A stretch of DNA of 64,000 nt. Origin: Octopus vulgaris. Its lineage: Eukaryota. Position 1 is the first letter of the stretch; the number at the start of each line of letters is the position of its first letter. Under the pieces are notes generated by a model that saw nothing but the letters and a program-made list of their open reading frames with translations, was not told where the DNA came from and searched no databases. The stretch spans positions 94,984,001 to 95,048,000 of the forward strand of contig OX597815.1 in assembly GCA_951406725.2 (NCBI GenBank). The letters are read 5' to 3'. Shown here in pieces: positions 5,344-64,000 of this stretch. Position numbers and translations under genes: made by a program.

Positions 5344-5383
<40 letters not shown>

Positions 5384-5384
<1 letters not shown>

Positions 5385-5776
5385 TCTTTTACTTGTTTCA
5401 GTCATTCGACTGCGGGAATGCTGGAGCACCGTCTTTAGTCGAGCAAATAGACCCCAAGACTTAGTCTCTGTAAGCCTAGTACTTTTTTGCCGAACCGCTA
5501 AGTTACGGGGACCTAAACATACCAGCGTCGTTGTCAAGCGATGTTGGGAGGACAAATACAGACACACAAATATATACACACACATACATACGTATGCATA
5601 TATATATATATACGACAGAGTTCTTTCAGTTTCTGCCTACTAAATTCACTCACAAAGCTTTCGTCGGCCCGAGGCTATAGTAGAAGACACTTGCACAAGT
5701 TACCACACAGTAGGACTGAATTCGGAACCATGTGGCTGGTAGGCAAGCTACTTACCACACAGCCCCTCCTGCATCT
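5384..5776 (-). mobile_element. tRNA-headed SINE, family A (full length)
   Basis: Reverse complement of copies at 40474-40913 and 50763-51177; A/B-box-like head, internal microsatellite, CTGAAACAAGTAAAAGA tail. Confidence 0.9.
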
Positions 5777-6076
5777 ATATATAAATAATATAGGTCGCTA
5801 ATTCGCAATTTGACACATTAAATACAGAAATATACATGTCACTAAAGTCAACAAGGGCACTAAACAGCACTACTAGTTCACGCCGCGCTTAGGGTTGAAC
5901 TCACCTTGTCAGCTTATATAATTTCTGTTGACATCATACGCTGATTTCGATCATACGCTGACTTCAGTTGTTAAGCGATGGTGGTTGGGGGAACAAACAC
6001 GAGACACAAATACATACATACATGAATATATATATAAGAACAATGAAAAATGGAAAAATGTTATTTAAATATCGCT

Positions 6077-16440: not shown

Positions 16441-18413
16441 CTTGAAAGAGAAAGCATAAAATCAAGACACTGGACATTTAGAAGACAGCTCCAACAATTG
16501 TAAACCTTTTAAAAGTAATCATGAATTCATGGAGAACAACGCTCATTTTAAACCATACACAAGAATATACCACATCACCAGGTATCAATATCGCCTGTGA
16601 TATCTTTCAAGGTGACTCATTAATACCCTTATTATTCTCCCTCACTCTGTTCCCATCATCCACGCAGCTGAATAATGCTAAGAGGGAGTATAATATCTTT
16701 GACCAGAAAATTTATCATCTACTCTATATGGATGATCTAAAACTATTTGCCAAAAACGACAAAGAATTAGAAGAGCTCCTGAATATTGTCAAAGAATTCA
16801 GCTCTGATATAGGTATGGAATTCGGACTTGATAAATGTGCAAAGGCTACTTTCAAGGCAGGGAAGTTCATAAAGGTAGAAAACATATAACTTGATACTAC
16901 TGCAGCTATTCGAAACCTAGACCAATCCGAACTATACAAATATCTGAGAAGCAATGAAGGTGATGGTATCCAGCACTCTAAAAAGAAAGAGAAAATACAC
17001 AAGGAGTGCTATCGAAGGATAAGAATGGTCCTAAACTCAGAATTAATGCGATAAATTCTTTGGCTACACCAGTAACATATAGCTTCGGTATCATTAAGTC
17101 TCACGGACATGCAGAATATGGAATGAAAGATCCGTCAAATCCTTACGGGTGCTGAAATCACTATCCAAAATCAGGATTTATCTCCCAAGAAAAACAGAGA
17201 AATCCTTCAAATCAGTAATAATAGGCCTTGAAACGTACCTCTGTAATTAAAACCTTCCTACAAGAAATGATGTGCTCTTACGAACTGCACTGAAGCATGA
17301 AGATTCCAAGCAGGCTTCAGTCATGAAGCTTAGTCAGAAATTTAAAACGTCTCTTGGCCTTCAAGTTAACAATAAGAATGACCAAAGACACTCAAATACT
17401 GACAGACCTACCATTGCTTCTCCTGATTTAGAAATTAACAATCGAAACGACCAATGAGATCCAAATTGTGACATACCTATCAGTGGTGCAAAAGCATCAG
17501 ACAAAAAGCAAAGAAGGCTTGCAGGGATAATATAAAAAAAAAAACTGGACAGGCAAGCTAGATATTGATCAAAATCTAATACCAATGGCTCCAAGTGGCA
17601 GGCCTGAAAGAGGGAACAGAAGGTTTTGTTATTGCAGCGCAAGATCAGAGCATACCTACCAGAAACTACCATTCAAACGTCCTTAAAGATGGACCTGACC
17701 CCTCGTGTAGAATTTGCAGGAAATTCACAGAGACAATTGATCATGTAGTTTCTGGCTGACCAGTCCTCACTGAAAAAGAGTACCTCATAAGACATGGTAG
17801 ACTAGGACCATACACCCACTGGAATGCTTGTAAATACTACAAAATTAAATCCCATGATAAGTGGTACAGGCACCATCCAGAGGATGTAATAAATGGCGAG
17901 GGTGTCAACACACTTTGGAACTTCCCAATACAGACAGAAAAATTGACTCCATTTGACCAGACATTGTGATCAAGGACTACAAAAGAGGAACCTGTCTATT
18001 AATATATATATATATGTCTGTCCCACAAGATAAAAATGCCTCAAGAAAGGAATACGAAAAGCTTTCTCACTATAAAGATCTGCAAATTGAAATCGCAAAA
18101 ACGTGGAAGTTTAGTTCTAGGATAATACCAGTAGTAATTGGTGCGTTGGGAATGATAAAGAAGTGAGTAGAGAAGTATATTAAGCAACTCCTTGGTAGCT
18201 TCAATCTCTGTGAACTACAAAAGATAACCTTCATGGGTTCAGCTCATATACTACGTAAAGCACCCCCATATAAAATGGAATAAATGTGGTGATAATTTTA
18301 GCATGCATAGCAAAAAAATTGTCCCTACTACTCTTGGCCTCCGGAGGGTGGCCGGTACTAAGGCAGGTGAAATGAAGTTATAATGGAAAGAAACCATAAG
18401 TGATAATAATAAA
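16441..18413 (+). mobile_element. Decayed Dong/R4-like non-LTR retrotransposon (RT, CCHC finger, restriction-like endonuclease)
   Basis: IFQGDSL.PLLF, HLLYMDDLKLFAK, DIGMEFGLDKC, TEGFVIAAQDQ, CRIC..ETIDHVVSG, PDIVIKD, KY.DL..EI, IIPVVIGALG; ends at TAA repeats. Confidence 0.9.
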
Positions 18414-25049: not shown

Positions 25050-26090
25050 TTAGTGCTCTAACATCATAGAAAGCGAAGGACTTTATGAATATGTGTTCCT
25101 GGTTGAAATGTACCCAAGAAAAATGGAGAGCCAGGCTTGATATGATTCTGATATAGGTCTGCTGGGTCAATTGTGACCTATGACAAATGGCTCTGGCAAA
25201 GTCAAGGTATATCACGTCTACGGCTGACTGGTTTAGCTGTTGTTTCAAAGTGCTGCAACAGTTGTGAGGCAGCTCCACCCTGAATGGGAGCCATGTTGCG
25301 TGTTTGTGAGAAGGTTGTTTTCTTCTAGGAACATGATCAGGCTTTTTCTGACAATGTGTTCCATTGTCATCTAACATGTGAGGTCAGAGAAATGGGCTTG
25401 TAGCTTTTAGCATCTGCTCTGTTCCCTGCTTTATGGACAGGGCATATTACACCCTCTATTAGCATGTTGGGAAGTTTACCACATACATGAAAACTCTGAA
25501 AGAGTATCTGCAGTGGTTTTGCAAGAGCCTTTTTACATGTCTTTAAAAGAAGTGCCGGGAGTTCATCTGGTCTCGTTGCTGAGTTTGATCTCATCTCATC
25601 AATGGGTGATATTAATCCTCTTCTGTTATGTTGATATGATCGATGGTTGCCTCTTTTCCGAATAGATTCGTTACATTAAAAACTCCTCAGACTTGATTAT
25701 TGGCGTTTTTTGCAGTGGAGAAGTGAAAACATTTCAGAATTGTTTATTCAGTGCTTCACTTATCTTCCAGTTGGTGAGCTGTTCTAACCAAATAGTGGCC
25801 TTATCTTATAACGTACCATAGCAGATTCCTTTGCCATCGCTTAAAATGCTTTAGGATTTGTTTTTTTTTATTTTCGACTGCTCAGGTTTCTCTTCTCTTT
25901 CTTTTTCATGGGAGATTTTGAGTTTATTTTCAATTTCGAACAGTTCCCCTATCATTCAGGTGTTTATTTAAACGATTCGAGATCTTTATTCTCTGCCGCA
26001 TGAGTATTCTCCTGTCCCGAGGAATGGTGTTTTCTCTCTACTGGTTCTCTTCTCTGGGAAATATTTAATGCATATGGCTCGCATTATGAC
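25050..26090 (-). mobile_element. Decayed CR1-group LINE RT N-terminal fragment
   Basis: SATRPDELPALLLK.C..LAKPL, ICPVHKAG..SYKPISLTSHV, GRSCLT, VDVIYLDFARA. Confidence 0.85.
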
Positions 26091-28416: not shown

Positions 28417-28424
<8 letters not shown>

Positions 28425-28942
28425 TATTGGTGAATTGAAGAAATGGAGCTGAACGAAGATTGAACAGAAATCGTTTTATTTCACGTGTTTTATTACACGT
28501 GTTTCGAAAGGCACAATTTACCAAAATCCGTGTTTCGAAAGGCACAATTTACCAAAATCCGATTGAATAATGGGACCATATTGTGTCTTTCTCTTCAGGA
28601 AGAAATAGGAAATCCGTTGGAAAAAAACAAAAACAGAACAGAGGCGGATTTCCTATTTCTTCCTGAAGAGAAAGACACAATATGGTCCCATTATTCAATC
28701 GGATTTTGGTAAATTGTGCCTTGTAGAATGAAACAAAACGATTTCTGTTCAATCTTCGTTCAGCTCCATTTCTTCAATTCACCGAATAATATTTTAATTT
28801 CAATTATCCGCACCAACGCACGGTTGCAACACCATCTGGTTGTACCTCCAACCGTGCTGATTACTGGTGTGATTTTTGCTACCAAGGTATCGGTTAAACT
28901 TTTGATTAATCTACTACAAGATTATTCATCTTTCTATTTCAC

Positions 28943-28946: not shown

Positions 28947-29008
<62 letters not shown>

Positions 29009-29150
29009 AGAGAATGGTCACTATGTGGCTCATTCTAGCACTAGAAAATCCAAAGGTTTCAACCACAAAAATACATGTTTCCCATGAAAGTCAGTACGAT
29101 TGTTAGCTCACACGAACAGGGCAAATAAAAAATAACAAAAATACAGATTA

Positions 29151-29232
29151 TTTTGGGACAATTGTTTCGCTATTAATGAATTAAATGTAATTTTTACTTA
29201 CAAAAAACCGACTTGTAGCTCCTCAGCCAAAA
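29151..29232 (-). ncRNA. Type I hammerhead ribozyme, canonical core
   Basis: TTTTGG-CTGAGGA-GCTA..(43 nt)..TAGC-GAAAC-AATT-GTC-CCAAAA. Confidence 0.85.
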
Positions 29233-29278
29233 CTATCTGGATGAAATCCACTCAATTGAGTGGATTTCATCCAGATAG

Positions 29279-29360
29279 TTTTAGCTGAGGAGCTACAAGT
29301 CGGTTTTTTGTAAGTAAAAATTACATTTAATTCATTAATAGCGAAACAATTGTCCCAAAA
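29279..29360 (+). ncRNA. Type I hammerhead ribozyme, canonical core, one stem I mismatch
   Basis: TTTTAG-CTGAGGA-GCTA..TAGC-GAAAC-AATT-GTC-CCAAAA. Confidence 0.85.
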
Positions 29361-29638
29361 TAATCTGTATTTTTGTTATTTTTTATTTGCCCTGTTCGTG
29401 TGAGCTAACAATCGTACTGACTTTCATGGGAAACATGTATTTTTGTGGTTGAAACCTTTTGGATTTTCTAGTGCTAGAATGAGCCACATAGTGACCATTC
29501 TCTTATATTTATTTTTATATAAAATATTGTAATATATTATAAAATATTATAATAATCCAGGTTTCTCGAAGCACTAGGCCACTTGGTGTTGAATAGATAT
29601 ACTATTAAATTAGTATCTAATTCTCTCACCCTTATTAA

Positions 29639-29685
<47 letters not shown>

Positions 29686-31939: not shown

Positions 31940-33130
31940 TCTGATATAGGCATGGAGTTTGGCCCAATATGAATGTTAATATTTGGTTATAGATCGAGGA
32001 AAGTCAGTCCCCCAAACCCAAAACCCATGCATTAACGGGCTCTTTATCTATCCCATTCCACACAAAGAATATTAGAAGTACCTAGGCATAGACAGAAATG
32101 TATAATATGAAGCTACTCTGAATAAAGATAGAGTGACTCGAGAATATTACACCAAACTTAGGAAAAGATGGCAGTTGAAACTCTCCTCTTATAGCGAAGC
32201 AATATCCCACAGTGCTTTTGCAGTACCAGTGCAGATCCCAATATTTGGAATAATCGATTGGTCTCTAGAGGAAATCCACTCCATAGTTATTAAAACCCGC
32301 AAAATCCTGACAACAACTGGGGACTACCACAGAAACATTGATGTTGACAGAAGAAATGAATGTAGTGGCCTGAGATCAGTGCAGACGGCCTTCGAATGCC
32401 GTATGGTATCACCCAAGCAGCACTTGCTAAACAACAACAACAAAACCATTCTCTTAGACACAAAACCATTACATCACAGCACACTTTGAAGGCTGTGCGT
32501 TTGCAATCCAGGAACAGGAGATTGCCACAATGTACCTGGTGAAACCCCAAGGTGCAACCGCATGTGTAGGTTATGTCATGTTTCTGTGGAAGACATCACG
32601 CTTGTGATTAGCAGCTGTCCTAAAATGTCGTCATAGTACTACCTCCCTATGCGGCACGATGTTGTTGCTAAAACAACTTACAATGCCATCCGCAAAAAAG
32701 ACTGTCCTGAAATAAACTTAAAATCCCTCGTATGGAATACATTTATTAACACCAACTCAAGGAATACTGGTGGAATATTCCCATCAAAACTTCTGTCAAA
32801 TGTAAACATAACAGGTTGGATATTGTTATTTTTGGGGGACAGAGGGGAACCTTTGCCCCAGCATAGAGGTCAGCTGCCCTGCAGATATAAAAATCTCTGA
32901 GGGTATCTATGGACAACAGCTTCGAAACCTCCAGCTTCCATATCCAGATTATGAATTGATATTCACACCATTTTAAGTGGAAAACTAGGTTTTGTTAGTA
33001 AATGCTTAAAGTAGAATCCAGATTAAGTGGGATTTTCTGAAGAGAAATCAACCGGCTAATTCGTACATTACAAGTGCAATCTGTGAGTGGAAAAGTAAAA
33101 ATAGGCAAGACTTTTCTCAAGTTCCAAGTG
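31940..33130 (+). mobile_element. Decayed Dong/R4-like retrotransposon with internal deletions
   Basis: DIGMEFG, KYLGI, FAVPV..PIFGIIDW, AIQEQEIAT, CRLC...EDI..V.S.CPKM..YLPMRHDVVAK. Confidence 0.85.
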
Positions 33131-33446: not shown

Positions 33447-33935
33447 GTAGTTATATTTAAGAAATATACGAGAAAAATTCCTGTTTTCCCCCAGATTAAA
33501 GTTTGCACTTAGAAGTGCTCAAGAAATTCAGACGTGAGGCAAAAGATAACTATATAAGTGAAGATAATTCTGTCCACAAACAATGATCCAACTCGCTTTC
33601 ATCAATAGAATTGACATAGAAAAATCACAAGAAACACATACTTAATTGTTATACAGAATATATACAGCACAAAGATATGTAAAAAAAAAATATAGATATA
33701 TTAAAAATACATAAACATATACATACAGAAATATATAGGGTAACTGATACATTAAAAATATACAGATGTGAACATTGATACATAGATATTAATATATATA
33801 TATATATATATATCACAATCAAGGAATGGCCATAATAGGCCATTCACCCACTAGAAATAACAGCCAAAGCTTCAACCGCAAAATAACATTAATTCCGCAA
33901 ACCAGGAGAAAATTAAAAAACATTTACCCTGTAAT

Positions 33936-34038
33936 TTCTTATACGATGCACCGTTTCATCTATTGTTTAATGGTAAACTAACCTGATTAAATTAAATCAA
34001 GCCAATCTTCCATAGGCCGATAGATTCGTCAGTAAGAA
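33936..34038 (-). ncRNA. Type I hammerhead ribozyme, canonical core
   Basis: Mirror copy of 34352-34454. Confidence 0.87.
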
Positions 34039-34351
34039 CAGCCAGATCCGAGCAGATATTATCACGAGGCACCTCTATCCCTGCCTCGGCAATATCTGAC
34101 CTAAAATTTTCAAATCATCGCACTCGCGCCAAATTTATCCAAATTTATGGTGGCAAATAAATTCTACGAAAGTTTTTGCCACCCTATATTGATTAATTAT
34201 GAATTTTCTGGTTAATTCCGTAATGGAATCGGCGGCTTATATTTGCTGCCGATAAATTTGGCGCGAGTGCGATGATTTGAAAATTTTAGGTCAGATATTG
34301 CCGAGGCAGGGATAGAGGTGCCTCGTGATAATATCTGCTCGGATCTGGCTG

Positions 34352-34454
34352 TTCTTACTGACGAATCTATCGGCCTATGGAAGATTGGCTTGATTTAATT
34401 TAATCAGGTTAGTTTACCATTAAACAATAGATGAAACGGTGCATCGTATAAGAA
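34352..34454 (+). ncRNA. Type I hammerhead ribozyme, canonical core, extended stem II
   Basis: TTCTTA-CTGACGA-ATCTAT..(56 nt)..ATAGAT-GAAAC-GGTGCATC-GTA-TAAGAA. Confidence 0.88.
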
Positions 34455-34676
34455 ATTACAGGGTAAATGTTTTTTTAATTTTCTCCTGGTTTGCGGAATT
34501 AATGTTATTTTGCGGTTGAAGCTTTGGCTGTTATTTCTAGTGGGTGAATGGCCTATTATGGCCATTCCTTGATTGTGATGTTGAAGTTATAAATGGTCTA
34601 TGACTATTTAATTTTTTTCCCACTAGGCCGCTGGTGGCAAATAAATTCTACGAAATTTTTTGCCACCCTATATTGA

Positions 34677-34725
<49 letters not shown>

Positions 34726-35129
34726 TGGCCCAACTCACTGAATAAAAATGAAATTGATGAAAAGAAATGAAAGTTAAAAATCCTGGAAGAAAATAAAATA
34801 TTAAATGCCCTATGGACGTTTCTGGGGTTAATTGCCCGTAAAAATAAAGAGTATATATACTCATTATTGCGCAACGCCTCTTACTTCAGGGTTGATAGTG
34901 GTTGTGCAAGTTCAAAATTAGTAGTTGTTGAAATGCTACAAAACGTTTAAATAATTTTATAGATCAAGAATTCATAGAAGTTGAAGGCGGAGGTGGGGGA
35001 AGGGCGGAATATATTTTTAATGAATTTAATTAGTGATTAGAAAATGATGAGAGTTAGCTTAAATAGGTACATTGGTTCAATTATAACCTAAATTACGAAA
35101 GTTCGAAAATATTGAATAATATCTATGTT

Positions 35130-40440: not shown

Positions 40441-40473
<33 letters not shown>

Positions 40474-40476
<3 letters not shown>

Positions 40477-40639
40477 CGCAGGAGTGGCTGTGTGGTAAGT
40501 AGCTTGCTTACCAACCACACGGTTCTGTGTTCAGTCCCACTACGTGGCATCTTGGGCAACTGTCTTGGGCAACTCCCCCTGGCCGACCTATGGCTTTTGA
40601 GTAGATTTGGTAGTCGGAAACTGAAAGAAGCCTGTCGTA

Positions 40640-40679
<40 letters not shown>

Positions 40680-40913
40680 TGTGTATATGTTTGTGTGTCT
40701 GTGTTTGTCCCCTTAGCATTGCTTGACAACCGATGCTGGTGTGTTTTTGAACAATTGTAAGAGGTTTATTGCCTCATGTATGAGGCAAAAGAGAACGATA
40801 GAATAAGTACTGGGCTTACAAAGAATAAGTCCTGGGGTCGATTTGCTCGACTAAAGGCGGTGCTCTAGCATGGCCGCAGTCAAATGACTGAAACAGGTAA
40901 AAGAGTAAAGAGT
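40474..40913 (+). mobile_element. SINE family A, full length, with a foreign 36-bp patch
   Basis: GGCGCAGGAGTGGCTGTGTGGTAAG...GACTGAAACAGGTAAAAGAG; matches 50763-51177. Confidence 0.92.
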
Positions 40914-40914
40914 A

Positions 40915-40949
<35 letters not shown>

Positions 40950-40960
40950 CATATACACAC

Positions 40961-41150
40961 ATTTGACTGCGGCTATGCTGGAAACGCACATTTAGTCGAA
41001 CAAATCGACCCCAGTATTTATTCTTTGTAAGCCTAGTACTTATTCATTTGGTCCCTTTTGCCGAACCGCTAAGTTACGGGGACGTAAGCACACCAGCATT
41101 GGTTGTCAAGCGATGGTGGGGGGACCAAACATAGACACACAACTATACAC
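40961..41150 (-). mobile_element. SINE family A, 3' half (tail-to-tail with the previous copy)
   Basis: Reverse complement of 50965-51145. Confidence 0.88.
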
Positions 41151-41488
41151 ACACACACATATATTTATGTGAAAAAAAAAACAAAAATGGAGAAATATTG
41201 ACGAACAACAATTGTCTTACATGAATTGTTATTTATTAAATTAATTCAATACAAATAGACTACATTCAATCTAACACCTCTTTCTGCTTCCAATGTTGTA
41301 TGGTATTGCCATTGATATACTAAAAATATTTATCATATTTGTTGAAAAATAAAACGATCTGAAACGTGGAGTTTCATCGGAGTGAAGAACAAATAAAGAC
41401 GACCATAGAGAGAAAAAAAGGAAAGGTTGAATATAGTTGTAATCATACAATTTTGCTCGCGTATCTCATTGGTATGTTGGACTTCTTT

Positions 41489-50660: not shown

Positions 50661-50762
50661 TGCACACATAGTCCATTCAACAAAACCACAACCTTAAAAT
50701 AACTTAATTATTACAAAACCTTTTGAATGGTATTTTACAGTTTATGTAAAATAAATATTCAT

Positions 50763-51177
50763 ACCGCAGGAGTGACTGTGTGGTAAGTAGCTTGTTTACC
50801 AACCACATGGTTCTGGGTTCAGTCCCACTGCGTGGCACATTGGGCAAGTGTCTTCTACTATAGCCTCGGGCCGACCAAAGCCTTGTGAGTAGATTTGGTA
50901 GGTGGAAACTGAAAGAAGCCCGTCGTATATATGTATATATATATGTGTGTGTGTGTGTGTGATTGTGTGTCTGTGTTTGTCCCCCTAGCATTGCTTGACA
51001 ACCGATGCTGGTGTGCTTATGTCCCCTTTTACTTAGCGGTTCGTCAAAAGAGACTGATAAAATAAGTACTGGGCTTACAAAAGAATAAGTCCCGGGGTCG
51101 AGTTGCTCGATTAAAGGCGGTGCTCCAGCATGGCCGCAGTCAAATGACTGAAACAAGTAAAAGAGTAAAAGAGAGAG
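50763..51177 (+). mobile_element. SINE family A, full length, least diverged copy
   Basis: A-box-like GTGACTGTGTGGTAAG, B-box-like GGGTTCAGTCCC, tail GGTGCTCCAGCATGGCCGCAGTCAAATGACTGAAACAAGTAAAAGAG. Confidence 0.93.
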
Positions 51178-57527: not shown

Positions 57528-59221
57528 ATAGATGTATATGTACATGTGTGTGTGTGTGTTCGTATGGATGGATATATATATATATATATATATACATAAA
57601 AATAGATTTAATATGTATACTTATATATGTATACAATGACGCACGAACATACACACACAATCACCCAAAAACACACATACATCGTTTTAATCAAAAGTCT
57701 CTTCGGCAAAAGTTGACAGCATTTCGGGGAGTTTGGTGAATGATGTTGTCATGAAGTTAGCAAATGTAAGCATGGAATCTATTTTGTGACAAAGCAGGTT
57801 GAGGAAAAATAACTCTGGACAGAGTAAGAAGAATATGAGTAACTTATAAAGTGGTTGCCAATTATGGTGCGTAGCTGATATCTATTTTTATGTAATCAGA
57901 CTTTAATATATGTTGAATCTATTAAGGGTGTGATTCAATGCAGTATTTCAAACATAAAATATGGTTGAAAATAGAATTTAACATACTCTTACTGAAACTA
58001 AATGTATATTTTCCAGAAATTTCTGATTTTTTTTATTAATACAGACAACGTATAATAATAAACCTCTCATAGTTTTCAGAATTTTATCTACATTTGATTT
58101 TCAAATAACCAATAAAATTTCGGAGAAGGCTAAGTGAACACGAAAATGAAGTTGACTTCCATTTACGCAAGAAAATCCATTTTCTTTTTCTTTGTGTATA
58201 TCTAATATTTCCGCTGCATTCGAAGTAATTAGAAAATGAATTTTTCAGCAGTTGTATGCCATGCATTTTTTCTTTATTTCTCTTAATACTGTTGTTGAAT
58301 AGATAAATGTGGTGAAATTGAAGAAAAAAAGAACGCGGAATTTACCTTACGAGCAGTAATATGTTATGAGAATTATTAAAAAATCGAAGGAAAGAAAATT
58401 TAAATCAAAATATGTATTTTCTTTATCTTCTTTACTATTGAGAAATGGATTTTCAGATTTTTTTAATAGCAGTAGAATGAATTTTTCATCGAATTTAATA
58501 CTTAGCAAATATAACATGTCAGGAAAAAATACACACTGGAGCATAAATTTGGATAAATATACAAGACTAAAAAAAAAAAATGAAATCCATCAAATATGCA
58601 TTTCTAATATATGTTTCAATTAATATTATCCTCTCTTATGGAAAAACTGACATGATATCAGATAATTAAAAAAAAGAAATTAATGATCGATGCCCGAGTA
58701 TTCATTATATTTCCGGATGTGAGAAATAGCTTTGGGTAAGATTCAAACTGCATTAAATGATTACATGAGGGATAAATAAGAAGAAAATCTACTTTCGGAA
58801 TCATTCTCTGGAATAATGTTTTACATACCTATTCTCTCCATCGATACATTAAATAATCAATACATCCTTGCAAAGTTTTACATCATTAACACTATAGCAC
58901 TGTTGTATCACAAACAACTCTATGCTTAAATTCACGATTTACACTATCCAGAAATGCCGTCCGATATTTTCCGTCATGGTCTTCTTTCAGCCTTCTAGTT
59001 ATCCAACACATGAAATAAAGGAATATTTCCTGGTGTCGGAATATTGGAAGACGCCCCGACATGTGCTAATAAATTTAAGCGATTAAAGTCTTAAAAGTAA
59101 AAGTAATTCAGTCAATTCATGTTCTAATTATAAAGCTCAAGACATGGATACATATATCAAGAAGTTCATACATTGTAGAATATATACATACATACATACA
59201 TACATACATAATTACATACAT

Positions 59222-59785
59222 ATAGACTTTGTGGAGTTAGCACCGAAAATATCACCCACATAATAAGCAGTTGTCCGAAAATGTCATCACGGTATTATTT
59301 ACCGATGAGACATGATGTTGTAGCTAGGACACTCTATAATGAAATCTGTTGGAAGGATAACCTCGAGGACAAAGAAATAAGAACTCACAGAATAGAAGAA
59401 GCCATAGCCACTCATAATAAAAAGGAGTACTGGTGGAATATCCCAGTAAAGACCTCAATAAAATGTAAGCACAACAGACCCGATATAATGATTTGGGATA
59501 GAGAAGAGAAACTGTTCACAGTTGTAGCAATTAGCTGCCTAGCGGATGTAAACATAAAGCTAAAAATCAGTGAAAAAGAGAACACATACGCTGAACAATT
59601 GAGAAATCTGCAGTTACTCTATCCAGATTACAAGTTTAGGTTTATACCTGTAATAGTTGGGGCCCTGGGATATGTAACACACTGCCTAAATACCAATCTT
59701 GAGAAATTAGGCGTCTCAAAATCAGACTACCATCACTAGAATTGTAAATCTGTAAAACTTTCCAGAAGTTTATCATTTAAATATA
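59222..59785 (+). mobile_element. 5'-truncated Dong/R4-like fragment (CCHC finger and REL endonuclease)
   Basis: RLC....ENITHIISSCPKMSSRYYLPMRHDVVAR, EYWWNIPVKT..HNRPDIMIWD, EKENTY..L, FIPVIVGALG; same family as 32550-33130. Confidence 0.9.
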
Positions 59786-63432: not shown

Positions 63433-64000
63433 AAACAGAGAAGGGGGAATATGAATGGGTGTAAGTATAGCTATGAAGGGGCTGATTAGTAATGGATTCT
63501 ATGGAGTGTAATATTTGTGTGTGTATATATATTTTTTTCTTTTATTCTAAAGTTGAGGTATATTAATTGTTTGTCGTAGACCCGTTTAGAAGTGGCTTGT
63601 ATTTTGTAATAAAGAGATTTTCTTTACTTATTCGTTGTCTCGAGGTTGTATCGTCCCTAAATTGGTAGAGGGGAAAATTCTGAAGTTTGGTGTTTTTTTG
63701 TTGGCGCAAGTATCTATGTGTTGGCTAAAAGCTATTTTTCTGAATTTTTTTGGGGAATTTTTATCTGGGATCTGGACACCCGGAGCAGGTGAGCAGGGCC
63801 ATTCGTTTACGCAAACCGGATTTTAGTCGCATATCCCGCAATTGGGTCTTCCACATTTTTTTACTGTCGGCTTCTGTGTTGAGGAGTGAATTCGGGCTTG
63901 TGTAAGGAGACTTTTCATGGATCTAGGCTGTCTTTTGCTTTTTATGATCGTGTGTGTTTGGAGGATTGTGTTCATTCTGTGAACCCTAACTCTGTAAGCA

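Follow-up and report, generated by a model that had tools for sequence, protein, structure and literature searches.

The insertion at 33812-34684 in the 64,000-nt window (the whole stretch of Octopus vulgaris DNA analysed here) represents a recently inserted copy of a non-coding, multi-copy repeat of 484 nt with a type I hammerhead motif. Elements of this kind are already known in animals, and the family described here is a further member without coding capacity. We consider it likely that the repeat belongs to the animal (non-LTR) retrozyme class and that it entered a (TA)n run by an insertion of the type made by Penelope-like elements (PLEs), at two points, with a PLE reverse transcriptase/endonuclease acting in trans.

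The complete unit occupies 34201-34684 on the plus strand, has 37% G+C, and is numbered here from 34201 as position 1. It is preceded by a partial tandem copy (34148-34200, plus strand) that corresponds to the final 53 nt of an upstream unit, positions 432-484. This copy is identical to 34632-34684 at 52 of 53 positions, with a start-to-start distance of 484, verifying the near-identical repeat and the unit length proposed in the first-pass annotation. The sole mismatch is G at 34172 against T at 34656, and on either side the match breaks off abruptly without extension. The whole forward arm consists of unit positions 432-484 followed by 1-484, which amounts to 537 nt or 1.11 units. The other arm is inverted (33812-34139, 328 nt, minus strand) and is the reverse complement of 34251-34579 over 329 alignment columns, the only gap being 1 nt in the T run at 34470. 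This 5'-truncated arm covers 0.68 unit, from position 379 down to 51, with its short end outermost. It lacks positions 380-484, the 105-nt tail that separates the short end from the long end (34580-34684, plus strand); the full tail occurs only on the right side of the insertion. Beyond this insertion, no other copies of the unit were found within the window.

The outer ends of the insertion both adjoin (TA)n runs, at 33792-33811 on the left and 34685-34723 on the right, and the left boundary is ambiguous by an AT shared with the arm. An 8-nt filler (34140-34147) at the inversion joint creates a 10-nt tandem duplication (34129-34138 and 34139-34148) that doubles the end of the inverted arm. 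The filler probably originated from templated end joining. Both insertion ends terminate in AU, a short distance 3' of a hairpin. The 8-bp hairpin at 34546-34567 (plus strand) lies 12 nt upstream of the short end at 34579, and the terminal hairpin at 34633-34667 (plus strand) lies 17 nt upstream of the long end at 34684; only 3 of 200 and 4 of 200 shuffles, respectively, were as stable. The terminal AU could pair with a TA primer. We infer that the boundary between 34200 and 34201 marks the long start point of reverse transcription, that is, an insertion end with no ligation scar. The ligation site of a ring would be expected instead at the cut site, between 34448 and 34449.

The near-perfect inverted arms of 328 nt and the TA flanks might also be attributed to a foldback or MITE DNA transposon, a local rearrangement or an assembly artefact. 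However, the ends are asymmetric by 105 nt, the right end extends beyond the inverted match, and the arms carry a strand-specific ribozyme motif. The same asymmetry is found in a diverged sister element in the window, and the junction and the short end were both found in independent public runs. An origin of this sort is hardly plausible.

The hammerhead motif (34352-34454, plus strand) has a complete core, with CUGACGA at 34358-34364, GAAA at 34433-34436 and GUA at 34446-34448. The predicted cut falls after 34448, which is position 248 of the unit. Stem I is formed by 6 bp (34352-57 with 34449-54), with a possible extension across an internal loop between 34344-34347 and 34459-34462. Stem II is an extended arm of 68 nt (34365-34432). 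Stem III is made up of two Watson-Crick pairs and one G.U beneath a palindromic UGCA loop, and its pairing probability in the predicted ensemble of the isolated motif was about 0.03. The active hammerhead topology was predicted to lie 2.1 kcal/mol above the minimum fold. A hammerhead descriptor that required at least 6, 4 and 2 pairs in stems I, II and III matched twice in the window, once in each arm, and had no match at all in 100 dinucleotide-resampled windows. The mirror motif in the inverted arm occupies 33936-34038 on the minus strand, with its core at 34032. It belongs to the genomic inversion, and the unit itself has one hammerhead polarity only. Rfam gave no hammerhead at the gathering score in the window, nor any among the 19 matches up to an E-value of 10 within 33700-34800. 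The matches with the best E-values in that region were miRNA-precursor models, which were far below their cut-offs and were rejected; these matches arose from the genomic palindrome and the TA run. The earlier description of a canonical hammerhead at 34352-34454 was correct for the core, but has to be qualified for the 68-nt stem II, the minimal stem III and the blank Rfam result. Self-cleavage of the element transcript is described here as predicted.

The unit was also predicted to be stably folded. The linear form had a z of -5.6, with none of 100 shuffles as stable, and the ring-closed form had a z of -6.5 (30 shuffles). The predicted fold includes a hairpin upstream of the ribozyme (34292-34337, plus strand), and the three hairpins named previously were all present in it. 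Closed into a ring, the unit adopted a branched rather than rod-like predicted fold with 61% of bases paired. The stability of the ring fold would suit a viroid-like replicon that also copies itself from RNA to RNA and leaves the genomic copies as by-products, and the covered parts of the study by Cervera and de la Pena (2020, PMC7229834) leave RNA-RNA replication open for mussel retrozymes. Such a replicon is highly unlikely here: the fold is not a rod, the unit hammerhead has a single polarity, and the thousands of genomic variants are enough to explain the diversity.

The longest stop-free stretch around the closed unit was 45 codons on the plus strand and 60 codons on the minus strand. We rejected a coding role for the ATG at the junction (34199), which opens only 18 codons, the same count as reported before. 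No ORF for a reverse transcriptase (RT) or a GIY-YIG endonuclease was found in the element, either in its frames or around the closed unit.

Part of the 484-nt unit was present in 20 of the 24 public sequencing runs listed. None of these 20 is an RNA run on record, which carries no information about expression. Contigs of about 100 nt, too short to reveal full arrays, were placed on the unit for four of the runs: X1, possibly the source sample of the window; X2 and X4, from two other studies; and X5, from the same study as X2. The numbers of contigs on the unit were 13,926 (X1), 6,366 (X2), 4,395 (X4) and 1,562 (X5), and in each run they covered all 29 bins of the unit. Most of them were less than 99% identical to the present copy. 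The 484-nt unit is a large, diverged, multi-copy family. Family variants within stem II (34352-34432) and the short-end hairpin (34546-34567) looked compensatory in these unphased contigs, which is only a lead for conserved structure. The variable position of the hammerhead core also changed in the family, and no other core position was listed as changed.

The junction between unit end and unit start recurred in this family and is not unique to the locus. Among joints with inserted letters (54 in all, 12 shown), 10 of those shown led from 34681-34684 to 34201-34205. Six spellings came from X1, two from X2 and two from X4, with none shown for X5, giving nine distinct spellings over three runs at depths of 209-1072. 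The six spellings in X1 indicate at least three loci in a diploid genome. The exact joint, with no letters between, was not among the joints listed for the four runs; it may be among the contigs that overran the unit ends (445, 279, 56 and 87 in the four runs). The exact junction motif had no match in metagenome contigs. Past 34579, 14 X2 contigs and 8 X5 contigs ran on into (AT)n (two of the four runs, one study), and therefore the short end also recurs. In X1, joints that went back from 34641 to 34266 and from 34538 to 34263, at depths of 336 and 569, may represent shortened forms of the unit that exist in several copies.

These results bear on a further explanation, in which a truncated coding PLE left the 484-nt stretch as its pseudo-LTR and a template jump confined to this insertion made the 53-nt copy. 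The insertion does have the layout of a PLE, and retrozymes resemble pLTRs. Copies that continue into a long PLE ORF would be expected among the loose ends of the family. None of the 24 loose ends shown, out of 272, left the unit at a common point into long unrelated sequence or a PLE ORF, and those other than the (AT)n ends read like diverged subfamily sequence; a sample of 24 does leave room for an ORF-bearing relative. The closed unit without an ORF and the same end-to-start joint in nine distinct spellings from three runs also speak against a truncated element, and we regard this explanation as improbable. Because the unit closes without an ORF and its junction recurs, it fits the animal non-LTR retrozyme class. 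The annotation had set a non-autonomous retrozyme against a truncated PLE. The retrozyme part of that claim agrees with our results, but the opposition is a false choice, since the insertion has the published PLE layout and retrozymes have been reported as derivatives of PLE pLTRs. Calling the element a self-contained replicon was an overstatement, given one sense hammerhead, no coding capacity and a PLE layout.

Animal retrozymes were described by Cervera and de la Pena (PMC7229834), in the parts covered, as short type I hammerhead repeats expressed as circles, for which PLEs are suggested as helper and tandem cDNA copied on a circle as the route. Li, Clavereau and Pollet (2026, bioRxiv 10.64898/2026.07.22.740005) present them, in the sections covered, as derivatives of PLE pLTRs, with solo monomers as offspring. 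The octopus unit resembles these elements in its short non-coding sequence, its type I motif, its G+C content below 50%, its head-to-tail junctions, its many copies, its occurrence as a solo monomer and its proposed PLE helper. Its length of 484 nt is above the 150-450 bp stated in the covered parts of PMC7229834 and within the 51-972 bp of the 2026 preprint. It differs in the 68-nt stem II and in that cleavage is predicted only and circles are putative. With 1.11 units, this locus does not have the two consecutive ribozymes by which the same sections of the preprint define an 'active' element. Inverted arms and fixed short and long ends were seen only here, compared with the animal retrozymes as the covered parts of both papers describe them. 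We found no description of the 484-nt family, or of two-armed retrozyme insertions, in the main texts and listings covered, which were largely non-subscription works.

The layout of the insertion is shared with endonuclease-bearing PLEs of the Hydra, Naiad, Neptune and Poseidon clades. According to the covered parts of Craig et al. (2021, PMC8557442), the signature of PLE insertion comprises a partial tandem, next to it an inverted and truncated copy, a tail of 30-40 nt on one side only and a bias to (TA)n. The octopus insertion has the partial tandem, the adjacent inverted 5'-truncated copy, the one-sided tail, the (TA)n target and the hammerhead, together with two putative internal start points of reverse transcription. 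It differs from these PLEs in the missing RT/GIY-YIG ORF, in a unit of 484 nt instead of about 3 kb, and in the tail, which at 105 nt exceeds the reported length and, like the lack of a helper in the window, counts against our assignment. Non-autonomous head-to-tail PLE passengers are known from the same source, as covered. Chlamys elements such as MRC1 are non-coding PLE passengers with pLTRs and multicopy head-to-tail insertions, much like the present family. However, as the covered text describes them, they are green-algal, most are without canonical hammerheads, and their targets are (CA)n or (C)n. Plant LTR retrozymes are also non-coding and hammerhead-bearing, with a proposed circular RNA intermediate, but the covered parts of PMC7229834 and of the 2026 preprint give them type III ribozymes in two LTRs, PBS and PPT sequences, a 4-bp target duplication and a Gypsy helper. 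We rejected this class on the basis of the type I motif, the 53-nt direct repeat without a ribozyme and the PLE-type ends.

The sister element mentioned above is a two-armed hammerhead insertion at about 29004-29647, also in (TA)n. Its arms are 99% alike and meet at a perfect palindromic centre near 29256, and its hammerhead motif has a 51-nt stem II and a minimal palindromic stem III. Three end-proximal motifs were confined to the sister and the 484-nt element within the window, with 2, 3 and 4 matches. The long end of the sister aligns with 34684, and its short end falls no more than about 4 nt from the corresponding position. Between these ends the sister has a diverged sequence, with a longer tail. 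Its hairpins folded no better than shuffles, 29 of 200 being as stable in the case of the short-end hairpin, and thus the hairpin-plus-AU feature at both ends is only a lead.

Several other repeats lie in the window. At 28417-28796, an inverted-arm element adjoins a TA run and has a hammerhead-like core on its arm, with an internal 31-nt tandem duplication (28498-28561) and without the end motifs of the sister pair. A broken PLE-like remnant follows a TA run at 638-2175. Its first piece has an RT C-terminal-like frame (Atlas PF26215 clusters, 0.96), and Pfam assigned no family to the two pieces searched. A GIY-YIG-like piece near 1472-1714 was recognised by its motif by eye, and a decayed minimal hammerhead-like stretch lies near 2007-2046. 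We rejected the remnant at 638-1717 as a helper: it shares no end motifs with the element, and its 3' region gave only chance-level matches of 11-33 nt. A second diverged remnant on the minus strand (63584-63990) is akin to the endonuclease region of 638-1717, with 42-56% identity by tblastn. Frames at 16482-16889, 25367-25675, 32106-32489 and 59212-59739 resembled, by eye, fragments of LINE-type reverse transcriptase or endonuclease. SINE-like copies of about 400 nt, 74-82% alike with one pair inverted, were found at 5382-5792, 40457-41168 and 50751-51169.

Both arms of the insertion appear to derive from one source sequence. At 34313, 34317, 34318, 34427 and 34564 both arms have the letter that is in the minority in all four runs; the alternative letter accounted for 61-100% of the summed depth of contigs, a measure that should not be taken for an allele frequency. 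Likewise, the two 53-nt copies have in common a minority G at 34652 and 34168. The shared letters indicate one source sequence or subfamily. One molecule is not necessarily implied, because the sites are linked, and these letters could mark one active subfamily, which weakens them as an argument for a single template. Across the arms and the repeat copies there were two differences in about 380 compared positions, so the insertion is recent. The difference between 34172 and 34656 was considered as a common family variant, which would suggest a mixed dimer template. This had no support, as the difference was absent from those listed at 5% or more, a comparison in which contigs lose rare variants.

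The steps that could have produced this locus are as follows. A tandem source locus elsewhere would be transcribed, and the transcript would be split into monomers by its hammerheads, which may act as dimers via the palindromic stem III; a host ligase would circularise these monomers. In the covered parts of PMC7229834, axolotl motifs with a weak palindromic stem III cut poorly as monomers and well as dimers, and in those of the 2026 preprint one of nine Xenopus dimers cleaved in vitro and eight did not. A PLE enzyme would then cut both strands of (TA)n and prime at unit positions 484 and 379, each of which ends in AU a little downstream of a hairpin. One cDNA would copy 1.11 units and the other 0.68, and a short templated filler would link them. 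According to the covered parts of Frangieh et al. (2024, PMC11167929), the anole PLE, in purified form, cleaves the two strands of its target at AT-rich sites, extends both, and begins at two internal RNA sites that delimit the tail. The locus itself has one hammerhead per strand, and therefore its own transcript could not release unit-length RNA; this copy is probably an inert, dead-end monomer offspring.

The forward arm spans 1.11 units and runs across the predicted cut site, and thus the template was uncut there. The annotation had suggested that reverse transcription passed more than once around a circular or tandem RNA. More than one unit was indeed copied, but the circle is one of two templates that fit the locus, the other being an uncleaved tandem transcript. 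For this step taken by itself, a ring is the most likely template, with close to an even chance, and an uncut linear chain is a credible candidate, with template jumps or two RNAs taking the remaining share. The fuller proposal is that one 484-nt RNA ring was copied from both cut strands at once, from two hairpin-plus-AU docking points 105 nt apart and with displacement of cDNA over more than one turn; this is possible, though on balance doubtful. A single-ring template would make the identity of both arms automatic, and by analogy it would match the abundant circles of other retrozymes. It would also need cDNA displacement, as both cDNAs would copy overlapping sequence, and strand displacement by a PLE enzyme was not found shown in the covered parts of the PLE and retrozyme literature.

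The competing arrangement keeps the same class and PLE enzyme but takes a linear tandem transcript with uncut ribozymes as the template, and we see it as plausible while somewhat short of probable. The forward cDNA would start at position 484 of unit n and stop at 432 of unit n-1, and the second strand would be primed at 379 of unit n-1 and run to 51, so that non-overlapping RNA is copied. Copying of this kind resembles L1 twin priming. The forward arm ends 52 nt short of the upstream second priming point, so no displacement is needed, and the weakness of stem III also suits an uncut chain. In the covered parts of PMC11167929, the anole PLE mainly used unprocessed RNA in vitro and could dispense with ribozyme cutting, and multimeric RNAs occur in axolotl, in those of PMC7229834. 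However, a random stop point would fall within the 105-nt tail in 22% of cases (105/484, one locus), and the arms of the sister element both stop at one palindromic centre, away from the tail. Near-identical arms from different units also need a homogeneous source array, against a family in which most contigs fall below 99% identity.

If single-ring copying is true, the insertion would document directly, at the genomic level, the rolling-circle reverse transcription that has been proposed for animal retrozymes, and it would account for the combination of inverted and tandem copies seen in PLEs generally. The repeat is also of value as a substrate, being a young, small, non-coding PLE passenger RNA with two defined start points. 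With such an RNA, the use of rings or uncut chains as templates by PLE enzymes could be addressed in vitro, as could the origin of inverted-plus-tandem insertions and the purpose of the hammerhead.
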